64,000 nt of DNA from Escherichia coli (GTDB lineage Bacteria; Pseudomonadota; Gammaproteobacteria; Enterobacterales; Enterobacteriaceae). Each line of letters opens with the position of its first letter. Position 1 is the stretch's first letter. A model generated the notes under the pieces. The model worked only from the letters and a program-made list of their open reading frames with translations, searched no databases and was not told where the DNA came from. The stretch lies in NCBI RefSeq assembly GCF_030013205.1, contig NZ_CP122648.1; one strand, 5' to 3'. Positions 881 to 15,379 of the stretch are shown in pieces. The translations under genes were made by a program, and so were the position numbers.

Positions 881-3361
881 ATGTTGAGAATGACCCCACT
901 TGCATCAGCAATCGTAGCGTTATTGCTCGGCATTGAAGCTTATGCAGCTGAAGAAACCTTTGATACCCATTTTATGATAGGTGGAATGAAAGACCAGCAG
1001 GTTGCAAATATTCGTCTTGATGATAATCAACCCTTGCCGGGGCAGTATGACATCGATATTTATGTCAATAAGCAATGGCGCGGGAAATATGAGATTATTG
1101 TTAAAGACAACCCGCAAGAAACATGTTTATCAAGGGAAATTATCAAGCGGTTAGGCGTTAATACCGATAACTTTGCCAGCGGTAAGCAATGTTTAACATT
1201 TGAGCAACTTGTTCAGGGTGGGAGCTATACCTGGGATATCGGAGTTTTTCGTCTCGATTTCAGTGTCCCGCAGGCGTGGGTGGAAGAACTGGAAAGTGGC
1301 TATGTTCCACCGGAAAACTGGGAACGGGGTATTAATGCGTTTTATACCTCTTATTATGTGAGTCAGTATTACAGCGACTATAAAGCGTCGGGTAATAGCA
1401 AGAGTACATATGTACGTTTTAACAGCGGGTTAAACTTACTGGGGTGGCAACTGCATTCTGATGCCAGTTTCAGTAAAACAAATAGCAATCCAGGGGTGTG
1501 GAAAAGCAATACCCTGTATCTGGAACGTGGATTTGCCCAACTTCTCGGCACGCTTCGCGTGGGTGATATGTACACATCAAGCGATATTTTTGATTCTGTT
1601 CGCTTCAGCGGTGTGCGGTTGTTTCGTGATATGCAGATGTTGCCTAACTCGAAACAAAATTTTACGCCACGGGTGCAGGGGATTGCTCAGAGTAACGCGC
1701 TGGTAACTATTGAACAGAATGGTTTTGTCGTTTATCAGAAAGAGGTTCCTCCTGGCCCGTTTGCGATTACAGATTTGCAGTTGGCCGGTGGTGGAGCAGA
1801 TCTTGATGTCAGCGTGAAAGAGGCGGACGGCTCGGTTACCACCTATCTGGTGCCTTATGCAGCAGTGCCGAATATGCTGCAACCCGGAGTGTCGAAATAT
1901 GATTTTGCGGCGGGTCGTAGCCATATTGAAGGGGCGAGCAAACAAAGTGATTTTGTCCAGGCGGGTTATCAGTATGGTTTTAATAACTTATTGACGCTGT
2001 ATGGCGGATCGATGGTCGCGAATAATTATTACGCGTTCACTTTGGGGACTAGCTGGAATACACGCATTGGTGCCATTTCCGTCGATGCCACGAAGTCGCA
2101 TAGTAAACAAGACAACGGCGATGTGTTTGACGGGCAAAGTTATCAAATTGCCTACAACAAATTTGTGAGCCAAACGTCGACGCGTTTTGGTCTGGCGGCC
2201 TGGCGTTATTCGTCGCGTGATTACCGGACATTTAACGATCACGTTTGGGCAAACAATAAAGATAATTATCGCCGTGATGAAAACGATATCTATGACATTG
2301 CCGATTATTACCAGAACGATTTTGGCCGTAAAAATAGCTTTTCTGCCAATATGAGCCAGTCATTGCCAGAAGGCTGGGGTTCTGTGTCCTTAAGTACGTT
2401 ATGGCGAGATTACTGGGGGCGTAGCGGCAGCAGTAAGGATTATCAGTTGAGTTATTCCAACAACCTGCGACGGATAAGCTATACCCTCGCGGCAAGCCAG
2501 GCTTATGACGAGAATCATCATGAAGAGAAACGTTTTAATATTTTTATATCGATTCCCTTTGATTGGGGTGATGACGTTACGACGCCTCGTCGGCAAATAT
2601 ATATGTCTAACTCAACGACGTTTGATGATCAGGGTTTTGCCTCAAATAATACGGGATTATCGGGAACCGTTGGAAACCGGGATCAATTTAACTATGGGGT
2701 CAACCTGAGTCATCAGCATCAGGGAAATGAAACAACAGCTGGAGCGAATTTAACCTGGAACGCGCCGGTGGCAACGGTGAATGGCAGTTATAGTCAGTCG
2801 AGTACTTATCGACAGGCTGGAGCCAGTGTTTCAGGGGGCATTGTCGCCTGGTCGGGTGGCGTTAATCTGGCGAACCGTCTTTCCGAAACGTTTGCAGTGA
2901 TGAATGCGCCAGGAATTAAAGATGCTTATGTCAATGGGCAAAAATATCGCACAACAAACCGTAATGGAGTGGTGGTATACGACGGAATGACACCTTATCG
3001 GGAAAATCACCTGATGCTGGATGTGTCGCAAAGCGATAGCGAAGCAGAATTGCGCGGTAACCGGAAAATTGCCGCACCTTATCGCGGCGCGGTTGTACTG
3101 GTTAATTTTGATACCGATCAGCGCAAGCCCTGGTTTATAAAAGCGTTAAGAACGGATGGGCAACCATTAACGTTTGGTTATGAAGTCAATGATATCCATG
3201 GTCATAATATTGGCGTTGTCGGCCAGGGAAGCCAGTTATTTATTCGCACCAATGAAGTTCCGCCATCGGTTAATGTAGCAATTGATAAGCAACAAGGACT
3301 TTCATGCACAATCACCTTCGGTAAAGAGATTGATGAAAGTAGAAATTATATTTGCCAGTAA
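881..3361 (+). CDS. yehB: Outer-membrane fimbrial usher
   Basis: ~826 aa usher-like protein; ATG at 881 preceded by AGGAG preferred over TTG at 866 used by ORF track. Confidence 0.9.
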   Translation: MLRMTPLASAIVALLLGIEAYAAEETFDTHFMIGGMKDQQVANIRLDDNQPLPGQYDIDIYVNKQWRGKYEIIVKDNPQETCLSREIIKRLGVNTDNFASGKQCLTFEQLVQGGSYTWDIGVFRLDFSVPQAWVEELESGYVPPENWERGINAFYTSYYVSQYYSDYKASGNSKSTYVRFNSGLNLLGWQLHSDASFSKTNSNPGVWKSNTLYLERGFAQLLGTLRVGDMYTSSDIFDSVRFSGVRLFRDMQMLPNSKQNFTPRVQGIAQSNALVTIEQNGFVVYQKEVPPGPFAITDLQLAGGGADLDVSVKEADGSVTTYLVPYAAVPNMLQPGVSKYDFAAGRSHIEGASKQSDFVQAGYQYGFNNLLTLYGGSMVANNYYAFTLGTSWNTRIGAISVDATKSHSKQDNGDVFDGQSYQIAYNKFVSQTSTRFGLAAWRYSSRDYRTFNDHVWANNKDNYRRDENDIYDIADYYQNDFGRKNSFSANMSQSLPEGWGSVSLSTLWRDYWGRSGSSKDYQLSYSNNLRRISYTLAASQAYDENHHEEKRFNIFISIPFDWGDDVTTPRRQIYMSNSTTFDDQGFASNNTGLSGTVGNRDQFNYGVNLSHQHQGNETTAGANLTWNAPVATVNGSYSQSSTYRQAGASVSGGIVAWSGGVNLANRLSETFAVMNAPGIKDAYVNGQKYRTTNRNGVVVYDGMTPYRENHLMLDVSQSDSEAELRGNRKIAAPYRGAVVLVNFDTDQRKPWFIKALRTDGQPLTFGYEVNDIHGHNIGVVGQGSQLFIRTNEVPPSVNVAIDKQQGLSCTITFGKEIDESRNYICQ

Positions 3362-3376
3362 TAGTCAGGTGGTCCT

Positions 3377-4411
3377 ATGAAAATTCGCATAATGCTATTT
3401 ATATTAATGATGATGGTTATGCCTGTGAGCTATGCGGCATGTTATAGTGAGTTATCTGTTCAGCACAATTTGGTTGTTCAGGGGGATTTTGCACTTAGTC
3501 AAACACAAATAGCGACATATGAGCATAATTTTAATTATTCGTCATGCGTGAGTACAAATACTATCACCCCTATGAGCCCGTCGGATATTATTGTTGGACT
3601 TTATAACGATACCATTAAATTAAATTTACATTTTGAATGGACCAATAAAAACAACATCACGCTGTCAAATAATCAGACCAGTTTCACCAGTGGTTATTCG
3701 GTAACGGTGACACCTGCGGCCAGTAATGCAAAAGTGAATGTTTCTGCGGGGGGCGGCGGTTCAGTAATGATTAATGGTGTTGCAACATTATCCAGTGCTT
3801 CATCATCGACACGCGGGAGTGCCGCAGTACAATTTCTACTGTGTTTATTAGGTGGCAAGTCATGGGATGCATGTGTAAATAGCTACAGAAATGCATTGGC
3901 ACAAAATGCAGGTGTCTATTCCTTTAATCTGACCTTGTCATACAACCCGATAACCACAACCTGCAAACCGGACGATTTATTAATTACTTTAGAGAGTATT
4001 CCCGTTTCACAATTACCAGCCACAGGTAACAAAGCAACAATAAATAGTAAAAAAGGGGATGTTATTCTGCGTTGTAAAAATTTATTAGGTCAACAAAATC
4101 AAACATCACGAAAAATGCAGGTGTATTTATCAAGTTCTGACTTGTTAACCAACAGCAACACAATACTGAAAGGTGCGGAAGATAATGGCGTAGGATTTAT
4201 TCTTGAAAGTAATAGTTCGCCAGTCACACTTTTAAATATCACTAACAGCAGTAAAGGATACACAAATTTAAAAGAAATTGCGACAAAGTCAAAACTTACA
4301 GATACAACGGTTTCAATTCCGATAACTGCCAGTTACTACGTCTACGATACAAACAAAGTTAAATCTGGCGCACTGGAGGCAACCGCATTAATCAACGTGA
4401 AATACGACTAA
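3377..4411 (+). CDS. yehA: Fimbrial adhesin-like protein
   Basis: 344 aa, signal peptide, Ser/Thr/Asn-rich, last gene of chaperone-usher operon. Confidence 0.8.
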   Translation: MKIRIMLFILMMMVMPVSYAACYSELSVQHNLVVQGDFALSQTQIATYEHNFNYSSCVSTNTITPMSPSDIIVGLYNDTIKLNLHFEWTNKNNITLSNNQTSFTSGYSVTVTPAASNAKVNVSAGGGGSVMINGVATLSSASSSTRGSAAVQFLLCLLGGKSWDACVNSYRNALAQNAGVYSFNLTLSYNPITTTCKPDDLLITLESIPVSQLPATGNKATINSKKGDVILRCKNLLGQQNQTSRKMQVYLSSSDLLTNSNTILKGAEDNGVGFILESNSSPVTLLNITNSSKGYTNLKEIATKSKLTDTTVSIPITASYYVYDTNKVKSGALEATALINVKYD

Positions 4412-6267: not shown

Positions 6268-6359
6268 TTTATTAACGCGATTGTAAAACTGCGGTTTTTA
6301 CTCGTTTACAACGCGTGCGCTGGACATTACCATCCTCCTCTGCGATTTATCATCGCAAT

Positions 6360-6437
6360 CAAACGACTCGGGGTGCCCTTCTGCGTGAAGGCTGAGAAAT
6401 ACCCGTATCACCTGATCTGGATAATGCCAGCGTAGGG
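6360..6437 (+). repeat. Left copy of 78-bp direct repeat: TPP-riboswitch aptamer segment without downstream expression platform (att-like)
   Basis: Identical base-for-base to 15250-15327; sequence diverges immediately on both sides. Confidence 0.85.
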
Positions 6438-6520
6438 GGCCAAAATAGTCTTGAAAATTATGTGGTTGTATCTCTTTTTGACCATAAATCATGCTGTTAA
6501 GGTACAAAAAGGGGTCGTTT

Positions 6521-7897: not shown

Positions 7898-7927
7898 GAC
7901 CATATTGTCATCTTGAGGAACAAAAGT

Positions 7928-9499
7928 ATGGTTGCTCGTTCTAACCTTGTAAATTTAGATGCACTGATTAAGCGTGCTGATTTAGGTTTAAAGATCCAAG
8001 ATAACTCTTCATTTGAAACGCTAAACAGTATTCCTGCAAGAGAATTGAAATCAGGAAGTGGAATTGCTGCGCTTCTGAGAAAACCAGATTTCCAGCGTGA
8101 AACAAATCATTGGGGGCCTGAGCAGGTTGTATCGCTTCTCGAATGCTACATCAATGGTGATTTGATACCTTCCGTTATTCTTTGGCGGTCTTCAACCCAT
8201 CTTTTTGTGATCGATGGTGGTCATCGTTTAAGTGCGTTACGTGCTTGGGTTGAAGATGATTATGGCGACGGTCATATATCCCATCAACTTTTTGGGCATG
8301 ATATTCCTCGTGAACAACGCCGCGCTGCAGATAGAACGAGAAAGCTTGTGAAGGAGAGGGTCGGTAGCTGGGAATATTATCAGAAGTTGCTTGCCGATGA
8401 TGCTTCATTGACCGAGGAACAGCAGAGAAGAATCAGCGTATTAACATCTCGTGGAATCTCAGTCCAATGGGTAGTGGGTGATGTAGATAAGGCAGAAACT
8501 TCATTTTTTAACATCAATATGAAGGGAACTCCTCTTGATGCTATCGAAGAGATGCTTCTAAAAAATCGCAAGAAAAGTATTCCGATAGCAACCCGAGCAA
8601 TTATTCGTGCCGGTAGAGGTCATCGCTATTGGTCGGGGTTTGATCAGAGCATTGCCCAGCAACTTGAAGATAAATCTGCAAAGCTGCATCGTTTGCTGTT
8701 CGAACCTGAAGTTGATCGCCCTATTAAAACTCTTGATCTTCCATTAGGCGGTTCTAGGGGGGTCAGGACAGCGATCCAAGTTTTGAAAGATTTCTTACTG
8801 ATCACTGATTGCAACCAGAATGGTGTTTTGAAAAAAATCGAAGCCTACCCTGATGATGCGTCGGGTGCTGATACGTTAAGAATCCTTTCCAAAGCCACAT
8901 CATTAAGCAATAGAATTACAGGCAATGGCGATGGTAGCTTGGGGCTTCATCCAGCGATTTATTTTTATGGTCCGACTGGAATCCACTCAACGCCAATGTT
9001 TCTAGGAACTGTGCTACTGGTGGCAAAACAACTCTCTAACAATAATGGTCAATTCTTTAAAGACTTCACAACAATCAGATCTAGGCTTGAGAGAATAATG
9101 ATCGAATTTAAGGACTTGATCGCAATGATAGTACAAAAACCAGGTAGTAATGTCCGAGTGGCTCGCTACTGTGATTTTTTAAATGCGGTGATCAAATCAC
9201 TCAAGCAGGGAGAGAATATTGATGAGAGTAAGCTTATCGAGCTGGCCGAATTGGAGGGGAGAATACTCTCTGGAGATTTTAAGAGAACATCAGCAAAAAT
9301 CAGCGATGAACAAAAAAGTAAGGTGTTCATTGACGTGGCTCTGCGCAACGCTTTGAAATGTCCGATTTGCCAAGGTTACCTTGATACTGAAAAGTCAGTT
9401 TCTTATGATCATATCGTACGTGTCCGTGAGGGAGGAGATGGTAATTCTGACAATGTACAGTTGACACACCCTTACTGTAACCAGTCAGTGAAGTGTTAA
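7928..9499 (+). CDS. ParB-like (DUF262/DGQHR-type) N-terminal domain fused to C-terminal HNH endonuclease; candidate defence/type IV restriction-like nuclease
   Basis: N-terminal motifs PDFQRETNHW and VIDGGHRLSAL; C-terminal CPICQ…YDHIVRV…NSDNVQLTHPYCN (HNH with Cys ligands); GAGGAA RBS before ATG 7928. Confidence 0.6.
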   Translation: MVARSNLVNLDALIKRADLGLKIQDNSSFETLNSIPARELKSGSGIAALLRKPDFQRETNHWGPEQVVSLLECYINGDLIPSVILWRSSTHLFVIDGGHRLSALRAWVEDDYGDGHISHQLFGHDIPREQRRAADRTRKLVKERVGSWEYYQKLLADDASLTEEQQRRISVLTSRGISVQWVVGDVDKAETSFFNINMKGTPLDAIEEMLLKNRKKSIPIATRAIIRAGRGHRYWSGFDQSIAQQLEDKSAKLHRLLFEPEVDRPIKTLDLPLGGSRGVRTAIQVLKDFLLITDCNQNGVLKKIEAYPDDASGADTLRILSKATSLSNRITGNGDGSLGLHPAIYFYGPTGIHSTPMFLGTVLLVAKQLSNNNGQFFKDFTTIRSRLERIMIEFKDLIAMIVQKPGSNVRVARYCDFLNAVIKSLKQGENIDESKLIELAELEGRILSGDFKRTSAKISDEQKSKVFIDVALRNALKCPICQGYLDTEKSVSYDHIVRVREGGDGNSDNVQLTHPYCNQSVKC

Positions 9500-9887
9500 A
9501 ATCACGTTTCACTTTTCGTTGTCATTTGTATCGAACGTTTTTGAGAAAGGGCAGGATTGCGAGCGAGTTACCAGCGTAAACAGATAAATACTGTTTTCGT
9601 AAGCCCACTGTCGCCGCTTTCCGCTCTGCAATTTTTGCTTGTCGGGGGGCTAATTGTGGCTTTGCTTGCCATAACATTAAAAGTCAGTAATATACTGAAA
9701 ATTAATACAATACTTTTCATATATCCCATTGAATATTCAGTTCATTGCCAAATAGCAAGCGGAGCACTCTCTCTTTAACGTTGTAGTAACTTAGTTGAAC
9801 AATTTTATAATATAATTTGTCTAAGTTGGTTGATGTATCAAAGCCTTTTTCTGAAGAATGAATTGGCGTGATTACTCACGCCAGATT

Positions 9888-10235
9888 TTAAATTTCAGAA
9901 CATAGGCTAAGCGTATAGACAGCAGTTTGCCCATCATTGTTAGTCGGTCTCATAACGAAAACAGGCTGACTCCCATTATCAATGTATGTGACTGCAACCC
10001 CTCCATCAGGTGTGGCATACATTTTTGCGATGCTTTTTTGACCTATAAAATCAAGTCTCCAAGTCTTACCACCAAGATGTATTGTCATTTTTTTATCTTG
10101 TATATCAAAAGTTGAATCTACAGAAACTTTCTGACTTCCCGAGTCAATATGACCTTCCTGTATTGCTTTACAGGAAAAGGTTGTGGCGTGGCCCATCACT
10201 GGAATTAACAAAGCGGCAAATACTAGTTTTTTCAT
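9888..10235 (-). CDS. Small secreted/periplasmic hypothetical protein (115 aa)
   Basis: Internal ATG with GGGAG RBS; signal peptide MKKLVFAALLIPVMGHA; no family recognised. Confidence 0.5.
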   Translation of the reverse strand: MKKLVFAALLIPVMGHATTFSCKAIQEGHIDSGSQKVSVDSTFDIQDKKMTIHLGGKTWRLDFIGQKSIAKMYATPDGGVAVTYIDNGSQPVFVMRPTNNDGQTAVYTLSLCSEI

Positions 10236-10345
10236 TTGTCTCCCTTGATGTGTCAAATGGATGGTGATGCTAATAATACATGATTGATTCAAAATGTCAC
10301 GATTAGTGCGTGGTTAATTGGTGCGTCAAATTGCATCTTTGTGCC

Positions 10346-10810
10346 ATGCGAAAGAATCTGAGATACCTTTTTGGACAACGAGTAAAAGAGTTCCGTATAG
10401 CTATTGGCTTAAGCCAAGAGGCCTTTGCAGATCGGTGTGGTTTTGCTCGTAGTTATATGAGTCGAATTGAGCGTGGTTGCTCTAATGCATCTCTTGATGC
10501 AATTGAGGTTCTGGCTGACGCTTTGCGTATTGAGCCTTGGCAGTTACTAGCTTCTGATTCAAGGAAAACTGATGATCAGGAGGTACTTGTTCCTTATGCT
10601 GCAGATGGGTCGTGTTTTCATCCAGGATTGGCAAGTACTCGCGATGGTTCGTTTAGAGTAGGGGAAAAATCAGCCCAGAAACGTTTCAGTTCGTTCAATG
10701 ACGCTCTCGAATACCTTCGTGGAATGGAAACCGCGAAGTGGCGTAGGCCTAATGCTAGTGGTAATTGGGGAATTGTATCTGCGGTTAAATGGGATCGACT
10801 GAATCAATAA
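10346..10810 (+). CDS. XRE-family (Cro/CI-type) HTH transcriptional regulator with uncharacterised C-terminal domain
   Basis: HTH segment LSQEAFADRCGFARSYMSRIERG; start codon uncertain (GTG 10310 or ATG 10346). Confidence 0.55.
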   Translation: MRKNLRYLFGQRVKEFRIAIGLSQEAFADRCGFARSYMSRIERGCSNASLDAIEVLADALRIEPWQLLASDSRKTDDQEVLVPYAADGSCFHPGLASTRDGSFRVGEKSAQKRFSSFNDALEYLRGMETAKWRRPNASGNWGIVSAVKWDRLNQ

Positions 10811-10976
10811 GATATCAGTAATTTTCGGGCCACTCCACAAGGCAATAAGTGGCTTAGTGGTGATTATCGAAGGGGAATACAAGCGAGCACCTAGGCACCA
10901 TTGCAAGAACCGCTCAACGCTGAGATCAGCAAGCCCCGATTTCTGCCGACCGTCCCTGTCAAATATCAAGGAGGCA

Positions 10977-11516
10977 TTACGCCTCCTCTTCTTCCTTCTT
11001 AATTCGCTGTACCGTCGAAGGAGCAACATTAAAGATCTCGGCGGTTTTACGCACTGACACGCCATCAGAAAGGGCTTTCTTTATACCTTCTCGATCCACT
11101 GCCTTACCTTTACCACGCTTTCTAGGATTGACGGCTTGCGCTTCTCGTTTACGTTCTAACATCAGTTCACGTTCACACGTTGCCACTGCCGACAACATAG
11201 TAAGCATCATTTTTCCCATCGCGCTTGTAATGTCTGCAATGATCCCTTCTTTGTGAAAGCGAACAATTACACCACGATTATTAAGTTGTTCCACTAAGGC
11301 AAGAATGTCTAAGGTGTTACGCCCTAAACGATCAAGAGAGTGGACGTGTAAGGTGTCGCCTTCTCTCAGATAGGCTAAACACGCTTGTAAGCCTGGGCGG
11401 TTAGTGTCTTTACCAGACAGCTTATCTTCAAAGACTTTGTCGAGAGTTAGTCCTGCAAGCTGGCGATCAGTATTTTGATCTACAGTGCTCACACGCTTAT
11501 AGCCGATATTGCTCAT
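10977..11516 (-). CDS. Serine recombinase (resolvase/DNA invertase family)
   Basis: N-terminus MSNIGYKRVSTVDQNTDRQ (catalytic Ser motif), C-terminal HTH; ATG 11516 with AAGGGGA RBS. Confidence 0.8.
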   Translation of the reverse strand: MSNIGYKRVSTVDQNTDRQLAGLTLDKVFEDKLSGKDTNRPGLQACLAYLREGDTLHVHSLDRLGRNTLDILALVEQLNNRGVIVRFHKEGIIADITSAMGKMMLTMLSAVATCERELMLERKREAQAVNPRKRGKGKAVDREGIKKALSDGVSVRKTAEIFNVAPSTVQRIKKEEEEA

Positions 11517-11564
11517 AAAATCCCCTTGATGTATCGATTTGGCACCACTCCAATGCAAATGAGT

Positions 11565-11660
11565 GTGTTGTATTCATTTGGTCTGTTTCAAGCCTTATGG
11601 ATACGGAATATTACACGATTTAGCTGTATTCATTTGGTATGCCTAATGGATACGCAGGGG
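11565..11660. promoter_or_regulatory. res-like recombinase binding sites upstream of the serine recombinase gene
   Basis: Two similar subsites TGTATTCATTTGGT…ATGGATACG with internal imperfect dyad symmetry, directly upstream of recombinase start. Confidence 0.4.
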
Positions 11661-11769
11661 GATAGATTAAATGGTGTTCTGTTTATACAGGTTTATTTGT
11701 TAGATCAACAAGTTGGCATTTCTAAACAGATGTTTGAACGTTGCCAAATGCCTTGACAACACAAGAAAA

Positions 11770-12720
11770 TGGCTTGCTATGAACGCATTACACGAAATAA
11801 GGCTATAAAAACAAAATAAATTTTAAAATTTGCACAAAAACGAGAAAACTCGTTCGACAAATAATAGATTGGTTTTTAATCGACAATTTCTGACAATTTC
11901 TGATGGTGCTCTGTAAACCGCATTACACAAGGCTTTGCGAAAGTGATGTAAAAGTGAAGAAAGTTAACATTGCACTTTGAAGCCATTTTTCATTGGATTT
12001 TTTAGTAGGGAATTACACAGGGAATAGAGAGCATTATTCTATGATTTACACAGGGAATATAGGGGATTATGGCACACACATAGAAAGGCATTACACAGAG
12101 TGAGTGCTATGTGATGATTGGTAGTAACGGTAGGTCACTGTGAGCTACCCCCCACAGAATTCTGTTACCCCTATCAAGTCTAACAGGGGTTTATAAAGAA
12201 TAATAAACCGATGATACCCCTATCAATATTGATACCCCTATTAGCTTTGATATGACTACCCCTATCAAAACTGATACCCGATAAGAATAAGTTAATAAGA
12301 ATAATTAAATAATATTCTTTATATCTATATATATGATCTTTTTGCCTTCCGGCGTTAGCTTCACTCTCTGGCAAGCAGCCTTACTCCGCTATCTTTGGGC
12401 TTCGTGGCTGGCCCGTTCCGCTCACACCGAAAGCAAAGCGTTACTCTTCTTCGTGTAACTATCGTTGGCGGTAACGCCACACGAAGAAATACTATTGCGC
12501 TGTGCGCAGTAAGAGTAATCACCTAACCAATCACCTGATTGCTTACGTGTTAACTCTCTCTAACTCTTAATTACCCTCCTACATTTAATAACTCTATTAT
12601 TCTCTGTAGTTGTGTAATTACTCGAAGAGAGAGCGGCTAAAGCTCAATTACACTCTGCTTTCCTCGTGTAATTTCACTAAGCCTCAATACAATTTCACTT
12701 CCTACATTCTGTAGTCGTGT
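11770..12720. repeat. Iteron-like repeat cluster in 1.9 kb ORF-free AT-rich region (putative origin or regulatory hub)
   Basis: Five direct copies of (C)ATTACACAG at ~11777-12100, four copies of TACCCCTATCAA at ~12163-12270, reverse-orientation GTGTAAT copies at ~12451-12715. Confidence 0.5.
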
Positions 12721-13503
12721 AATAGTTTTCGGTGGGGAAAAGCCAGAGGCGACACCGAAAGAAAATTCTGATCTTATTAATCTTATCTATCTTAGTTAAT
12801 CTTCTTACTTACTTTATCTACTTTATTATTAATAATAGCTTTATAAGCTCTCTGTGTAGCTCTCTGACGCAAGAAACAGCATTCAGGAAGGGAATCACCT
12901 TAGAAAAGTGTTCTTTGCGTCATAATGTGTTTTATGAAGGATTCAGAGGTGTTTCATAACACAAGGTATAGAGGATATTTTAGTTAATTAAAAATAAGGG
13001 GGCTAAATGCTTCTCTAACAGCATTAAGCAGGGTAGAGAATGGAAATGCATTGCCTACGTATATATAAACTCACTACAAGGCTTTACAGAGCGTTTTATA
13101 AAGTAACTAATCTAAGAACTCTCTGTTTTATATCTATCATCATCTTTCCATCATCTAACAAATACAAAATAAGCCCCTTAAATAAGCCTCTGGCGAGCTA
13201 AACAGCCATTACATAAGGGAATGTATTTCTTTTATCAAAACTTCGTTAGAACGCGTTTTAGAGCGTTTTATACAATAAGGAAGAATAGGACCGTCCGCAA
13301 GAGCACGAATTGCTAAGAAAGAATGTAAACGCATGAAAAATATCAGATTTTTTATGAAAATATATTGACAAATGTTTCTTTATATGTAATAATAGGTATT
13401 AGAGAGACAGAAAAACATTCTTCTCTAAATAATCAAAATCAATGCACTTTGAAGCCGTCAGGCTTGCAAGGTGTTTTTCTTTTAACTGAATAAGGAGTTT
13501 TTT

Positions 13504-13692
13504 ATGAAATGGTTTACACCGGAACACGTCGTAGAGGCATTTAAAAAAGGTGAGCTAACACGACATCAAGTAGTAATGAATCGTAATATGGCAAGGAGTC
13601 GAGGTTATCCAGAGCGTGAAAAATGTTTCGATGCAGCACTAAAAATTATTGATAAATTAAGAAAAAATGAAAAAGGATCTGAAACAGAGTAA
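13504..13692 (+). CDS. Hypothetical small protein (62 aa)
   Basis: AAGGAG RBS upstream of ATG; no family recognised. Confidence 0.35.
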   Translation: MKWFTPEHVVEAFKKGELTRHQVVMNRNMARSRGYPEREKCFDAALKIIDKLRKNEKGSETE

Positions 13693-13711
13693 AGAAGAGA
13701 AGGAGAAAACT

Positions 13712-13882
13712 ATGAGCGAAACTACAGAAAAGAAAAGACAACCACGCACTTGCTTTCATATTCCTGATGAAGTATTTCAGGTGTTGTTTAAAGAAGCCAG
13801 AAGTAAACGTATCACTGTTACAGATTACATTCTTGATATGTTGAAAAGAGAGGCTGAAACACTCTCAAATAAAAGCAAGTGA
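13712..13882 (+). CDS. Small ribbon-helix-helix (CopG/Arc-like) DNA-binding protein
   Basis: 56 aa; AAGGAGAAAAC RBS; N-terminal RTCFHIPDEVFQVLFKEA…ITVTDYILDML pattern typical of RHH. Confidence 0.45.
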   Translation: MSETTEKKRQPRTCFHIPDEVFQVLFKEARSKRITVTDYILDMLKREAETLSNKSK

Positions 13883-13936
13883 TTTTTATCACCATAGTAG
13901 CGCCGTAGAGCGTGATTACATCAAGGAGCTTTTTTA

Positions 13937-14599
13937 ATGATTAAACATACAAAACCTTTCTTAGGAATAGATTATGACTTACTAGCAATCACTTCCCTAG
14001 TGATTAACGGCAAAACAAAAGAAGTAAAACTACATCATAAGATCATTTATTCTTATTTGTTAAGTTTATCTGGCACATATCAAAAGGTAACACCATCTTT
14101 GAAAGGTATTGGTGAGCGGTTAGGAGTAGGTACAGATCAGACGGTACGCCGTCATATCAAAGATCTTGTTTCTTTTGGATGGTTGAAGATTGAGGAAAGG
14201 GCAGGTAGCACAAATGCTTATATTGTCCTTCCTTATGAACAAGAAGCCCAGACACAACAAGAAGCTACCGTTAAAGCTGTTCAGGAACAGCTTCCCCCTA
14301 CGGAAGATAATAAAGAGTTTTCTTTTGATGTTCTTGATGATTGGGATGCGCCTTTACCTTGGGAAATGGAAGAAACGCCATCTGATGAAAAGGTAGCTAA
14401 TGATAATGAGGAGGATGTGTTAGAGAATTTTGCCTCTCTTATCATCCAGGAGAAACACACAAGAACAGGAGGGGCATCATTTATAGAATTTGCAACATCG
14501 TTAGCCTGTAAGCACAGGATAAAGCTACCAAATGGTATTGAGGCATATTTTGCTAAGAAACATCCCAAAGTATATGAAGACTTTGATATTCCATTTTAA
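13937..14599 (+). CDS. HTH (winged-helix-like) protein with acidic linker; possible iteron-binding replication or regulatory protein
   Basis: 220 aa; AAGGAG RBS; HTH-like segment LKGIGERLGVGTDQTVRRHIKDLVSFGWL; sits beside iteron region. Confidence 0.45.
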   Translation: MIKHTKPFLGIDYDLLAITSLVINGKTKEVKLHHKIIYSYLLSLSGTYQKVTPSLKGIGERLGVGTDQTVRRHIKDLVSFGWLKIEERAGSTNAYIVLPYEQEAQTQQEATVKAVQEQLPPTEDNKEFSFDVLDDWDAPLPWEMEETPSDEKVANDNEEDVLENFASLIIQEKHTRTGGASFIEFATSLACKHRIKLPNGIEAYFAKKHPKVYEDFDIPF

Positions 14600-15052: not shown

Positions 15053-15249
15053 ATTTAGAAAAATAATATTAATTAGCTAATTAATATAATCAATGGTTTT
15101 CACCATCTGAATGATAGCCGTTAATTGTTTCTTTTTCATTCCTTCTATGGGGTACAAAATGGGGTACACAGAGAAGAAGCAATTAATGGAGGCGAGCTTG
15201 CATCTGCAAGCCACTTCCCCTAAGCTGGCACAAAATATAGAGATTCAAC

Positions 15250-15327
15250 CAAACGACTCGGGGTGCCCTTCTGCGTGAAGGCTGAGAAATACCCGTATCA
15301 CCTGATCTGGATAATGCCAGCGTAGGG
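15250..15327 (+). repeat. Right copy of 78-bp direct repeat (part of intact thiM riboswitch)
   Basis: Identical to 6360-6437. Confidence 0.85.
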
Positions 15328-15379
15328 AAGTCACGGACCACCAGGTCATTGCTTCTTCACGTTATGGCAGGAGCAAACT
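15250..15379 (+). promoter_or_regulatory. thiM TPP (THI-box) riboswitch: aptamer plus expression platform
   Basis: Sequence CGACUCGGGGUGCCCUUCUGCGUGAAGGCUGAGAAAUACCCGUAUCACCUGAUCUGGAUAAUGCCAGCGUAGGGAAGUC… recognised as thiM riboswitch; directly precedes thiM start. Confidence 0.9.

Follow-up and report, generated by a model that had tools for sequence, protein, structure and literature searches.

A repeat-rich, gene-free gap in an Escherichia coli island as the probable replication origin of a phage-satellite-like element

The closest described system is PLE of Vibrio cholerae with its protein RepA, an integrative island of ~10–18 kb that exploits a virulent myovirus (PMC7145576, PMC7567579). 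PLE consists of a leftward gene cluster, a 2–3 kb gap free of open reading frames (ORFs) and then rightward clusters; the gap contains four repeat families, one of which represents iterons (PMC7145576, PMC7567579). The virulent phage ICP1 encodes the nuclease Odn, whose N-terminal domain copies the DNA-binding domain of PLE RepA and which cuts the PLE origin at the iterons (PMC8263062). Here, we analyzed a window of 64,000 nucleotides from the chromosome of Escherichia coli (assembly GCF_030013205.1, contig NZ_CP122648.1), in which the 1.9 kb gap at positions 11560–13500 forms the non-coding center of an ~8.9 kb island inserted in the thiamine pyrophosphate (TPP) riboswitch of thiM. The gap is 100% identical to that of strain K_EC180, and strain ATCC 8739 carries the island at 98.8% identity. 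We consider it likely that this gap is the non-coding control region of a satellite-like integrative element, with an iteron origin at ~12163–12334, replication that would be induced by a phage, and a phage nuclease that would counter it.

As far as can be known from sequence alone, the layout of the island resembles that of PLE: a leftward gene cluster is followed by an ORF-free, repeat-rich gap with one set of semi-palindromic iterons and then by a rightward cluster. The putative initiator (Rep, 220 amino acids (aa); 13937..14599, plus strand) resembles PLE RepA in that an N-terminal winged-helix domain for DNA binding is joined to a C-terminal part that contains neither helicase nor primase, and replication modules are swapped among family members in both systems. 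In contrast, no sequence homology to PLE was seen, the fold search being the sole direct comparison, and the Pfam match found for the initiator is to HTH_36 and not to RepA_N. The island integrase is a tyrosine recombinase (phrog_1) and not a large serine recombinase, and members of the family are inserted in the thiM riboswitch or at thrW, whereas PLE uses a large serine recombinase to enter VCR repeats. Further differences from PLE are the distance of 1.7 kb between the iterons and the initiator gene, the five interchangeable specificities, and the capsid (Phage_cap_E), tape-measure-like and Dit-like genes that full-length members have of their own.

The proposed initiator sites are the type-a iterons TG(A/T)TACCCCTATCAA on the plus strand at 12163, 12212, 12230, and 12254, followed by a half unit TGATACCC at 12272 (12163..12279 as a whole). 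Three of the TACCCCTATCAA copies are exact (12166, 12215, and 12257), and the fourth reads TACCCCTATTAG (12233). Each unit is the dyad TGATA-CCCC-TATCA, and with four units and a half unit the array contains the at least three direct repeats of a 15–22 bp unit by which iterons are recognized. All four window copies of TACCCCTAT are located inside the gap. The iterons adjoin a 45-bp stretch with 9% G+C (12290..12334), which is proposed as the DNA-unwinding element. Just left of the type-a units are single plus-strand iterons of non-cognate type, a b-type GGTAGGTCACTGTGAGCTA at 12129–12147 and a d-type CCCCCCACAGAATTCTGTTA at 12148–12167 (12129..12167 together). These b- and d-type units are multiplied to 3–5 copies in loci with a type B or type D initiator. 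Single non-cognate units recur in most E. coli-type loci and are absent from type E loci.

The PHROG families matched by the initiator are of the replication-initiation, O-like and DnaD-like kinds (E=1e-10 to 1e-7); it also matches Pfam HTH_36, and its predicted model has an N-terminal winged helix. Its relatives share an acidic linker and a C-terminal domain ending in (D/E)DFDIPF, joined to one of five unrelated N-terminal types, A to E. The protein of the window combines a type A winged-helix domain with the acidic linker and a C-terminal domain that ends in EDFDIPF (14579–14599); variants of this ending in relatives are DSLPF, FSLPF, STIPF, and FGIPF. The C-terminal tail of SSB is DDDIPF, and the SSB-like tail of the initiator suggests the recruitment of SSB-partner proteins such as PriA.

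The N-terminal types of the initiator are paired with five semi-palindromic repeat families: a, TGATACCCCTATCAA; b, GGGGGTAGGTCAyTGTGAgCTA; c, ACCTAGGAArTGrkTTCC; d, CCCmCAGAAnnnTGTTA; and e, GTAACGAnnnGTTACA. The cognate repeat family was present in at least three copies in 26 of 33 loci when a strict pattern was used, and in ~31 of 33 by eye. The observed pairing was not reached in any of 20,000 label permutations, and the result was the same after redundant loci were removed. All eight loci with a type A initiator carry 3–5 type-a copies. The pairing holds across 1.7 kb of independently assorting sequence, with types C, D, and E each found together with both alleles of the hairpin-rich module that lies between repeats and initiator gene. 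The sequence-only reading of this stretch had named the 220-aa helix-turn-helix (HTH) protein as the candidate for binding, and the choice was right; the DNA-binding domain of this protein co-varies with the TACCCCTATCAA repeats.

Relatives from other Enterobacteriaceae, with an initiator that is 45% identical overall, keep TACCCCTATCA(A) in 4–5 copies at spacings of 18, 24, and 24 (18 and 24 in the window). The tract after the last iteron (window 12280–12330, GATAAGAATAAGTTAATAA..GATCTTT) is kept with the iterons in these distant relatives. The iterons and the AT-rich stretch together give by far the strongest match of the distant gaps to the window gap (74–82% identity), which elsewhere align with it only in a few short, much weaker stretches. 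ATTACAC, the conserved 21-mer and the leader-hairpin sequence (described below) are all absent from the distant gaps. Because the iterons and the AT-rich stretch are kept across genera, the origin core is placed at ~12163–12334, and the TACCCCTATCAA repeats are best read as iterons of a replication origin that is cognate to the downstream initiator.

In SaPI/PICI, the initiator is a primase-helicase fusion and the origin directly follows the rep gene; in plasmids, Rep_3 initiators contain two winged-helix domains and usually depend on DnaA boxes. The predicted origin shares with SaPI/PICI and with theta plasmids (P1, F, R6K, and pSC101) the direct repeats for a cognate initiator, the adjacent AT-rich unwinding region and the co-variation of repeat and initiator specificity; many plasmids also have a multimer-resolution recombinase beside the origin. 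It differs from them in its short initiator with an SSB-like tail and in that no DnaA box was found.

When 50,697 phage records were searched with the initiator by tblastn, one phage was matched, the 146 kb Justusliebigvirus muut. The protein muut_154 (muut 81258–82256; locus L064:4001–4999) starts with a type A domain (98% over 120 aa), continues with a type C domain (91% over 93 aa) and then has an endonuclease domain. A type E (93%) and a type C (91%) domain are combined in inny_184, and type D (93–96%) and type C (85–90%) domains in the corresponding proteins of Mt1B1_P17 and BI-EHEC. All four phages are virulent Stephanstirmvirinae and carry the chimera gene at one syntenic locus (L064–L067). 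The design is thus two island-initiator domains in tandem, the first of which is swapped (A, D, or E) and the second constant (C). Further D+C chimeras are carried by metagenomic phage contigs of ~150 kb. The C-terminal domain of the chimeras is a predicted nuclease (phrog_681 "endonuclease", E=2e-18; Pfam MUG113, E=4.6e-4; T5orf172, E=0.11), and its tblastn relatives (<60% identity), from T5-like and other phages, bear homing or GIY-YIG endonuclease annotations. At the DNA level, island and phage are 94.7–97.3% identical over 261–626 bp. No type-a iterons were found in the muut genome, which is consistent with the predicted iteron-dependent cutting of the origin by the chimera.

As with Odn, the phage protein is predicted to be a fusion of a satellite-initiator DNA-binding domain with a T5orf172/GIY-YIG-type nuclease, kin of homing endonucleases, and its specificity is predicted to follow the replicon type of the satellite. 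Unlike Odn, where the identity is 42%, the domains here are 85–98% identical to those of island initiators, which indicates a very recent exchange between island and phage. Also unlike Odn, the chimeras have two tandem DNA-binding domains, one variable (A, D, or E) and one constant (C), and in at least muut and inny the chimera gene directly follows a gene for a 44% identical homologue of the 56-aa ribbon-helix-helix-like protein of the island. A last difference is that muut carries hairpins with a type-c-like core in its own early leaders. These are five intergenic hairpins, ggcgGGAA(A/G)TGGTTTCCcgcc, at 66512, 67371, 69380, 71689, and 72268 (minus strand; L069), located ~10 nucleotides downstream of sigma-70-like early promoters. 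The leader hairpins carry GGAAATGGTTTCC, and their core GGAA(A/G)TGGTTTCC equals the core of the island type-c iteron. One hairpin contains an exact 13-mer of a type-c iteron variant, with ~0.04 such matches expected in the genome for random base composition. The likeness between the muut hairpins and type c could be a coincidence between palindromes, or it could reflect a phage origin of type C.

Full-length relatives of the island are ~12–13 kb elements at thrW and other sites and encode Phage_cap_E capsid, tape-measure-like (613–624 aa) and Dit-like (225 aa) proteins (L008:19663–23648; L071–L074 at ~9000–12600). Their tape-measure-like protein is 28.5% identical to muut_231 over 305 aa and their Dit-like protein 49.7% identical to muut_230 over 185 aa, and muut_230 and muut_231 are adjacent. 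This homology of tail genes suggests a link to a helper phage. The replication after excision that the sequence-only reading had suggested is plausible, and the shared tail genes and the exchange of genes between phage and island are indirect signs that it would take place during infection by a virulent helper rather than as plasmid-like maintenance. Beyond the region of the initiator gene, muut and the island share a 23-bp match at the start of the ribbon-helix-helix gene and one weak 48-bp match. The latter (81% identity, E=1e-5) is between window positions 10926–10973, in the spacer downstream of the recombinase gene, and muut 64326–64373, within the large 1.7 kb gene-free region of the phage (64.0–65.8 kb).

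We infer a series of steps from binding through unwinding and replisome recruitment to phage induction and cleavage. The initiator, encoded 1.7 kb downstream of the iterons, would bind the four to five dyad TGATACCCCTATCAA units as dimers of its N-terminal winged-helix domain, and this binding would open the adjacent 45-bp stretch with 9% G+C. Because the initiator is without a helicase or primase domain, its conserved C-terminal domain with the SSB-like DFDIPF tail would recruit the host or phage replisome. The res-like sites would let the flanking recombinase resolve multimers, and the leader terminator hairpin would keep the initiator operon off until some signal arrives. The element would most likely replicate during infection by virulent Stephanstirmvirinae (phAPEC8/phi92-like). 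In some of these phages, the initiator domains copied into the chimeric nuclease would guide it to the iterons for cleavage, in the manner of ICP1 Odn at the PLE origin.

Several observations weigh against this interpretation. No DnaA box TTATCCACA with up to one mismatch was found in 11560–13500, and no helicase, primase, or loader gene was found in the island by PHROG and other family searches. Fold searches with the initiator gave only generic winged-helix matches, which do not separate an initiator from transcription factors, and HTH_36 and winged-helix folds are also found in plain transcription factors. The pairing fails at two metagenomic loci, which may be defective or the product of recent recombination: in L017, a type B initiator is accompanied by four type-a iterons, and in L023, a type D initiator by only two b units. 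In several loci, two or three repeat families are found together (e.g., L003 with a2, b4, and c4). The chimera is present in only 4 phages among the 50,697 records, and its constant type C domain may have targets in the phage itself. Finally, the island of the window is without capsid and tail genes, so it is possibly a decayed remnant.

Some of these observations would also fit repeats that are operators, with the 220-aa HTH protein as a regulator or immunity factor, the gap as a regulatory hub and the chimeras destroying or silencing its sites. Repressors often have HTH_36 and winged-helix domains, and the best fold matches of the protein are to MarR, ArsR, and centromere-binding proteins. 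No helicase or primase is encoded by the island, which is also without a DnaA box, and the thrW-type relatives have no obvious cI-like repressor. However, the repeats lie 1.1–1.2 kb upstream of the only strong promoter and adjoin the stretch with 9% G+C, the best sequence-family matches of the protein are replication initiators, and a recruiting role would suit its conserved acidic linker and its C-terminus with the SSB-like tail. Moreover, the recombinase with res-like sites beside the gap fits a replicon. We therefore regard a purely regulatory role of the repeats as improbable and retain the iteron origin as the preferred interpretation.

The gap had been described as an unusually long ORF-free segment with very AT-rich DNA, and both descriptions were borne out. 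Its longest ORFs have 75, 64, and 63 codons, and its AT-rich parts are 12290–12334 (9% G+C) and 12761–12860 (24% G+C). Across 37 related gaps, no ORF is retained at a constant length or position, and single-base indels between relatives are numerous. Hidden genes are ruled out by the lack of a conserved ORF and the frequent 1-bp indels. In all 60 listed E. coli genomes with the gap, RefSeq leaves it without annotation. DNA related to the segment was found in 686 of 5,426 complete E. coli genomes, 340 of which hold at least 80% of it; the copies in E. coli number ~770, and the relatives of the gap occupy several insertion sites. In blastn searches, plasmid similarity was limited to two E. coli records, both with the same element, and no similarity to phage records was found at E<=1e-5, with chance-level short matches at E<=10; thus, no cos, pac, or oriT-like sequence shared with phages was found.

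For the comparison of the gap, seven related gaps were aligned (alignment A1) and 54 more loci were collected through an invariant 21-mer. From left to right, the gap consists of res-like dyads, a palindrome, an AT-rich part with the first ATTACAC, a core (11900–12104), a hypervariable repeat block (12105–12289), the stretch 12290–12334, the hairpin-rich module, an AT/pyrimidine tract, an operator region, a promoter, and a leader hairpin. These modules are 86–99% identical among relatives. The sequence-only reading had allowed that the repeats might be degenerate remnants of an insertion sequence or prophage. A decayed remnant (dead genes, or the scar of an insertion sequence or prophage) with chance repeats could account for the absence of the structural genes of full-length relatives from the island of the window and for the remnant HTH-like gene at its right end. 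It is hardly credible for the gap itself, being refuted by conservation and co-variation: related gaps are found at several insertion sites in the 686 genomes, their modules retain the identity given above, no conserved ORF remnant is present, plasmid and phage similarity is limited to the two plasmid-search records with the same element, and the repeats co-vary with a protein domain.

Besides the iterons, the gap contains two families of ATTACAC motifs. Five (C)ATTACAC(A/G)(A/G)G motifs form a dispersed direct array on the plus strand (11787..12098), with ATTACAC at 11787, 11922, 12012, and 12090 and the one-mismatch variant TTTACAC at 12045; further forward copies are located at 11610 and 12647. 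The reverse motif GTGTAAT occurs at 12612, 12666, and 12717, with a GTGTAAC at 12453. Of the 14 ATTACAC copies on both strands of the window, 9 are in the gap, which makes up 3% of the window, where ~0.16 are expected from the rate outside. The copies at 11922 and 12012 are kept in all E. coli-type loci examined. The reverse copies are found only in allele 1 of the hairpin-rich module, and motifs of both orientations are missing in distant relatives. Neither of the two families follows the initiator type, and both are missing in distant relatives; they are thus not the iterons, and ATTACAC was rejected as such. The sequence-only reading, whose three motif families are real and whose coordinates and motifs needed only small corrections, had likened all of them to an iteron-type origin or a dense DNA-binding hub. 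The origin proposal is well supported for the TACCCCTATCAA repeats, which co-vary with the initiator domain, have the 9% G+C neighbor and are kept across genera, but not for the other two families. A role of ATTACAC as a promoter or protein-binding site of phages was also rejected, as muut is not enriched in it (19 and 11 copies compared to ~15 expected per strand, estimated from base composition). The occurrence of short motifs in both orientations and in two clusters several hundred bp apart is reminiscent of P4 ori/crr. Unlike P4, the ATTACAC arrays do not follow the initiator type.

The hairpin-rich module (12335..12760; 45% G+C) contains ~eight different stem-loops and holds the reverse GTGTAAT and GTGTAAC copies together with the forward copy at 12647. 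Its fold z-scores, compared to shuffled sequence, are -5.7 for the plus strand and -7.2 for the minus strand. Among lineage-1 loci the module is 90–96% identical, as conserved as the neighboring genes. The unrelated second allele of this position is rich in hairpins as well (z -4.5 and -4.6). Over 10500–14500, no Rfam family was matched at E<=1, and no promoter-like or convincing terminator-like site was found bracketing 12335–12760. The allele-1 sequences are too alike for covariation to show, and allele 2 does not align reliably with them. The module may be an RNA, a single-stranded DNA element, or a set of protein-binding dyads.

One possibility is that the gap chiefly yields structured non-coding RNA, one species or several and mostly from 12335–12760, that serves immunity or the exploitation of a helper, like P4 CI RNA, P1 C4 RNA, or the non-coding transcripts of PLE; the DNA repeats would then be of secondary importance. 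The low z-scores of both alleles and an identity as high as that of the flanking genes speak for it, many relatives have no protein repressor, and PLEs express abundant non-coding RNAs (PMC7567579). On the other side are the lack of an Rfam match and of promoter- and terminator-like sites around the module, z-scores that are near equal on both strands, as expected for DNA palindromes, and substitutions too few for a covariation test; in addition, the distant relatives keep the iterons but not the module. We consider such an RNA unlikely as the main product, although it could coexist with the origin. A leader terminator upstream of the early operon and the many members without a protein repressor are features also known from P4/P1 RNA immunity. 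In contrast to P4, the island has no alpha primase-helicase and no psu, sid, or delta, and no Rfam match to P4 or C4 RNAs was found.

The near equality of the structure on both strands would also fit cis sites for a helper or for single-stranded DNA, to which the hairpin-rich module and the ATTACAC arrays might belong (pac/cos-like sites, primosome or single-strand initiation sites, or landing sites of phage proteins). Such sites would complement the iteron origin. An island without a terminase would need to be recognized for packaging, the alleles of the module assort independently of the initiator type and, in the few annotated loci, with different versions of the capsid gene, and the SSB-like tail of the initiator would suggest a PriA-type pathway. 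Against these points stand the absence of similarity to phage records at E<=1e-5, with the matches at E<=10 being short and at chance level, the sharing with muut outside the initiator region of no more than the 23-bp and the weak 48-bp match, and the lack of ATTACAC enrichment in muut. Cis sites of this kind thus appear rather improbable.

Immediately to the left of the gap lies the gene for a small serine recombinase of 179 aa (10977..11516, minus strand; PHROG 125 "DNA invertase", E=5e-56; RefSeq "recombinase family protein"), which probably resolves multimers. In distant relatives (L071–L074, ~2589–3753), its position is occupied by a small tyrosine recombinase of 186–192 aa (Pfam Phage_integrase), and this replacement by a non-homologous recombinase at the same position fits a role in multimer resolution. 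Just upstream of the serine recombinase gene are two res-like dyads in direct repeat, TGTATTCAT-N19-ATGGATACG and TGTATTCAT-N12-ATGGATACG (11565..11661), which are 92–93% conserved only in loci with the same recombinase and are presumably its sites. They are followed by an imperfect palindrome (11678..11749), an inverted repeat in which TTGGCA and TGCCAA enclose ~23 bases. These ~23 bases are reverse-complemented in one locus (L002, strain NT1N31; window 11712–11748), the sole minus-strand match among 60 loci, and the flip points to hairpin extrusion of the palindrome.

The similarity of the recombinase to a DNA invertase, and the motif copies in both orientations on either side of the iterons, raise the question of an invertible switch with the opposed ATTACAC/GTGTAAT copies as crossover sites. 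Such a switch is very improbable and has been largely refuted: no inverted segment was found in the 60 related loci except for the flip of the 37-bp palindromic stretch, the sites adjacent to the gene look like res, with directly repeated dyads whose spacers are unequal in length, and relatives with a small tyrosine recombinase or with no recombinase still keep the gap.

Further to the right, the block 11900..12104 is shared by both E. coli lineages (69–92% identity in the module comparison of alignment A1). The AT/pyrimidine-rich tract (12761..12860) is built of tandem ATCTTATTA-like units of varying copy number and differs in length among relatives. Repeated AGAGCGTTTTA units and the block GGCGAGCTAAAC..TCGTTAGAACGCGTTTTAGAG (13075..13300, plus strand) form a candidate operator region upstream of the early promoter. 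The block GGCGAGCTAAAC..TCGTTAGAACGCGTTTTAGAG itself (13185–13300) is invariant in A1 and in all E. coli-type loci, and even between the lineages it is 80–89% identical. The rightward operon has a strong sigma-70-type promoter (13365..13393, plus strand; TTGACA, a 17-base spacer, AATAAT and a TG before the second hexamer; 11 of 12 consensus positions), whose TTGACA does not vary in A1. Directly ahead of the first ORF, a leader hairpin with a 13-bp stem is followed by UUUUUCUUUU (U-tract; 13444..13484, plus strand). The fold of 13400–13490 has -24.2 kcal/mol (z -3.1), and in A1 the stem is invariant and the loop variable. From its place between promoter and first ORF, the hairpin is predicted to act as a terminator or attenuator. 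A 17-mer CA(T/A)TGCACTTTGAAGCC, present at 11968 and in the leader terminator stem at 13440, was considered as an antiterminator pair and rejected, as the upstream copy diverges in relatives whereas the leader copy does not. The leader is followed by two small plus-strand ORFs (13504..13882), one of 62 aa (13504–13692) and one of 56 aa (13712–13882); the ribbon-helix-helix-like fold of the latter was assigned by sequence reading only.

Our literature search on the island, its proteins, thiM/thrW satellites, and Stephanstirmvirinae satellites found no description of this family, with incomplete coverage, so that an earlier description is possible. We tentatively propose, with a confidence just short of even, that the family is the first counterpart of PLE in E. 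coli and the Enterobacteriaceae: satellites of Stephanstirmvirinae (jumbo-like myoviruses) that swap at least five origin/initiator cassettes against a modular two-headed nuclease, the first domain of which is changed in response, with the hairpin-rich module and ATTACAC as new RNA or single-stranded DNA cis elements that capture phage replication or packaging. If this is true, relatives of a satellite family for which we found no description are present in ~1 in 8 sequenced E. coli strains, and the PLE–ICP1 arms race, in which origin switching is set against an origin-directed nuclease, extends from one Vibrio system to E. coli and its relatives. It would also provide five predicted pairs of a domain and its 15-bp target for studying how winged-helix specificity evolves and how phage nucleases are re-targeted, and the patterns of host range and resistance seen with phAPEC8/phi92-like phages may be explained in part. 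E. coli offers easy genetics, and Stephanstirmvirinae are in development for therapy and biocontrol. The two conserved non-coding elements, the ATTACAC arrays and the hairpin-rich module, are flagged for transcript mapping.

The island is bounded by two TPP riboswitch copies upstream of thiM (6359–6454 and 15249–15345). Both are full copies and the only Rfam matches of the island that reach the gathering threshold, with bit scores of 61.9 and 71.2, and the full riboswitch at both ends indicates that the element brings or rebuilds one. One copy is now located ahead of the island integrase gene and the other ahead of thiM, and the integrase may be under thiamine control. The left part of the island encodes the tyrosine integrase, a GmrSD-type restriction enzyme, a 115-aa protein, a cI-like HTH protein, and the leftward small serine recombinase. 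After the 1.9 kb gap follow the 62-aa ORF, the 56-aa ribbon-helix-helix-like ORF, the 220-aa HTH protein, and the remnant gene, which is HTH-like and marks the right end of the island. Markers of PICI, cfPICI, and P4 (alpA with a primase-helicase initiator; portal, protease, and terminase; psu, sid, delta, and alpha) were found neither in the island nor in full-length relatives by PHROG, NCBIfam, and Pfam searches, and no portal or terminase was detected in the full-length relatives. The thrW region of O157 Sakai was rejected as a known home of the family, as it holds different prophages, Sp1 and Sp2. In full-length relatives, a second ORF-free gap of ~1 kb lies between the early genes and the capsid cluster (L008:24248–25230). 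The slot next to the integrase is occupied here by the GmrSD-type (type IV) restriction enzyme (window 7913–9499) and in a second thiM island by an HNH type IV methyl-directed restriction enzyme (L004:4332–5057; PADLOC mREase_IV, E=1e-23), and it looks like a variable slot for defence genes against modified phage DNA.

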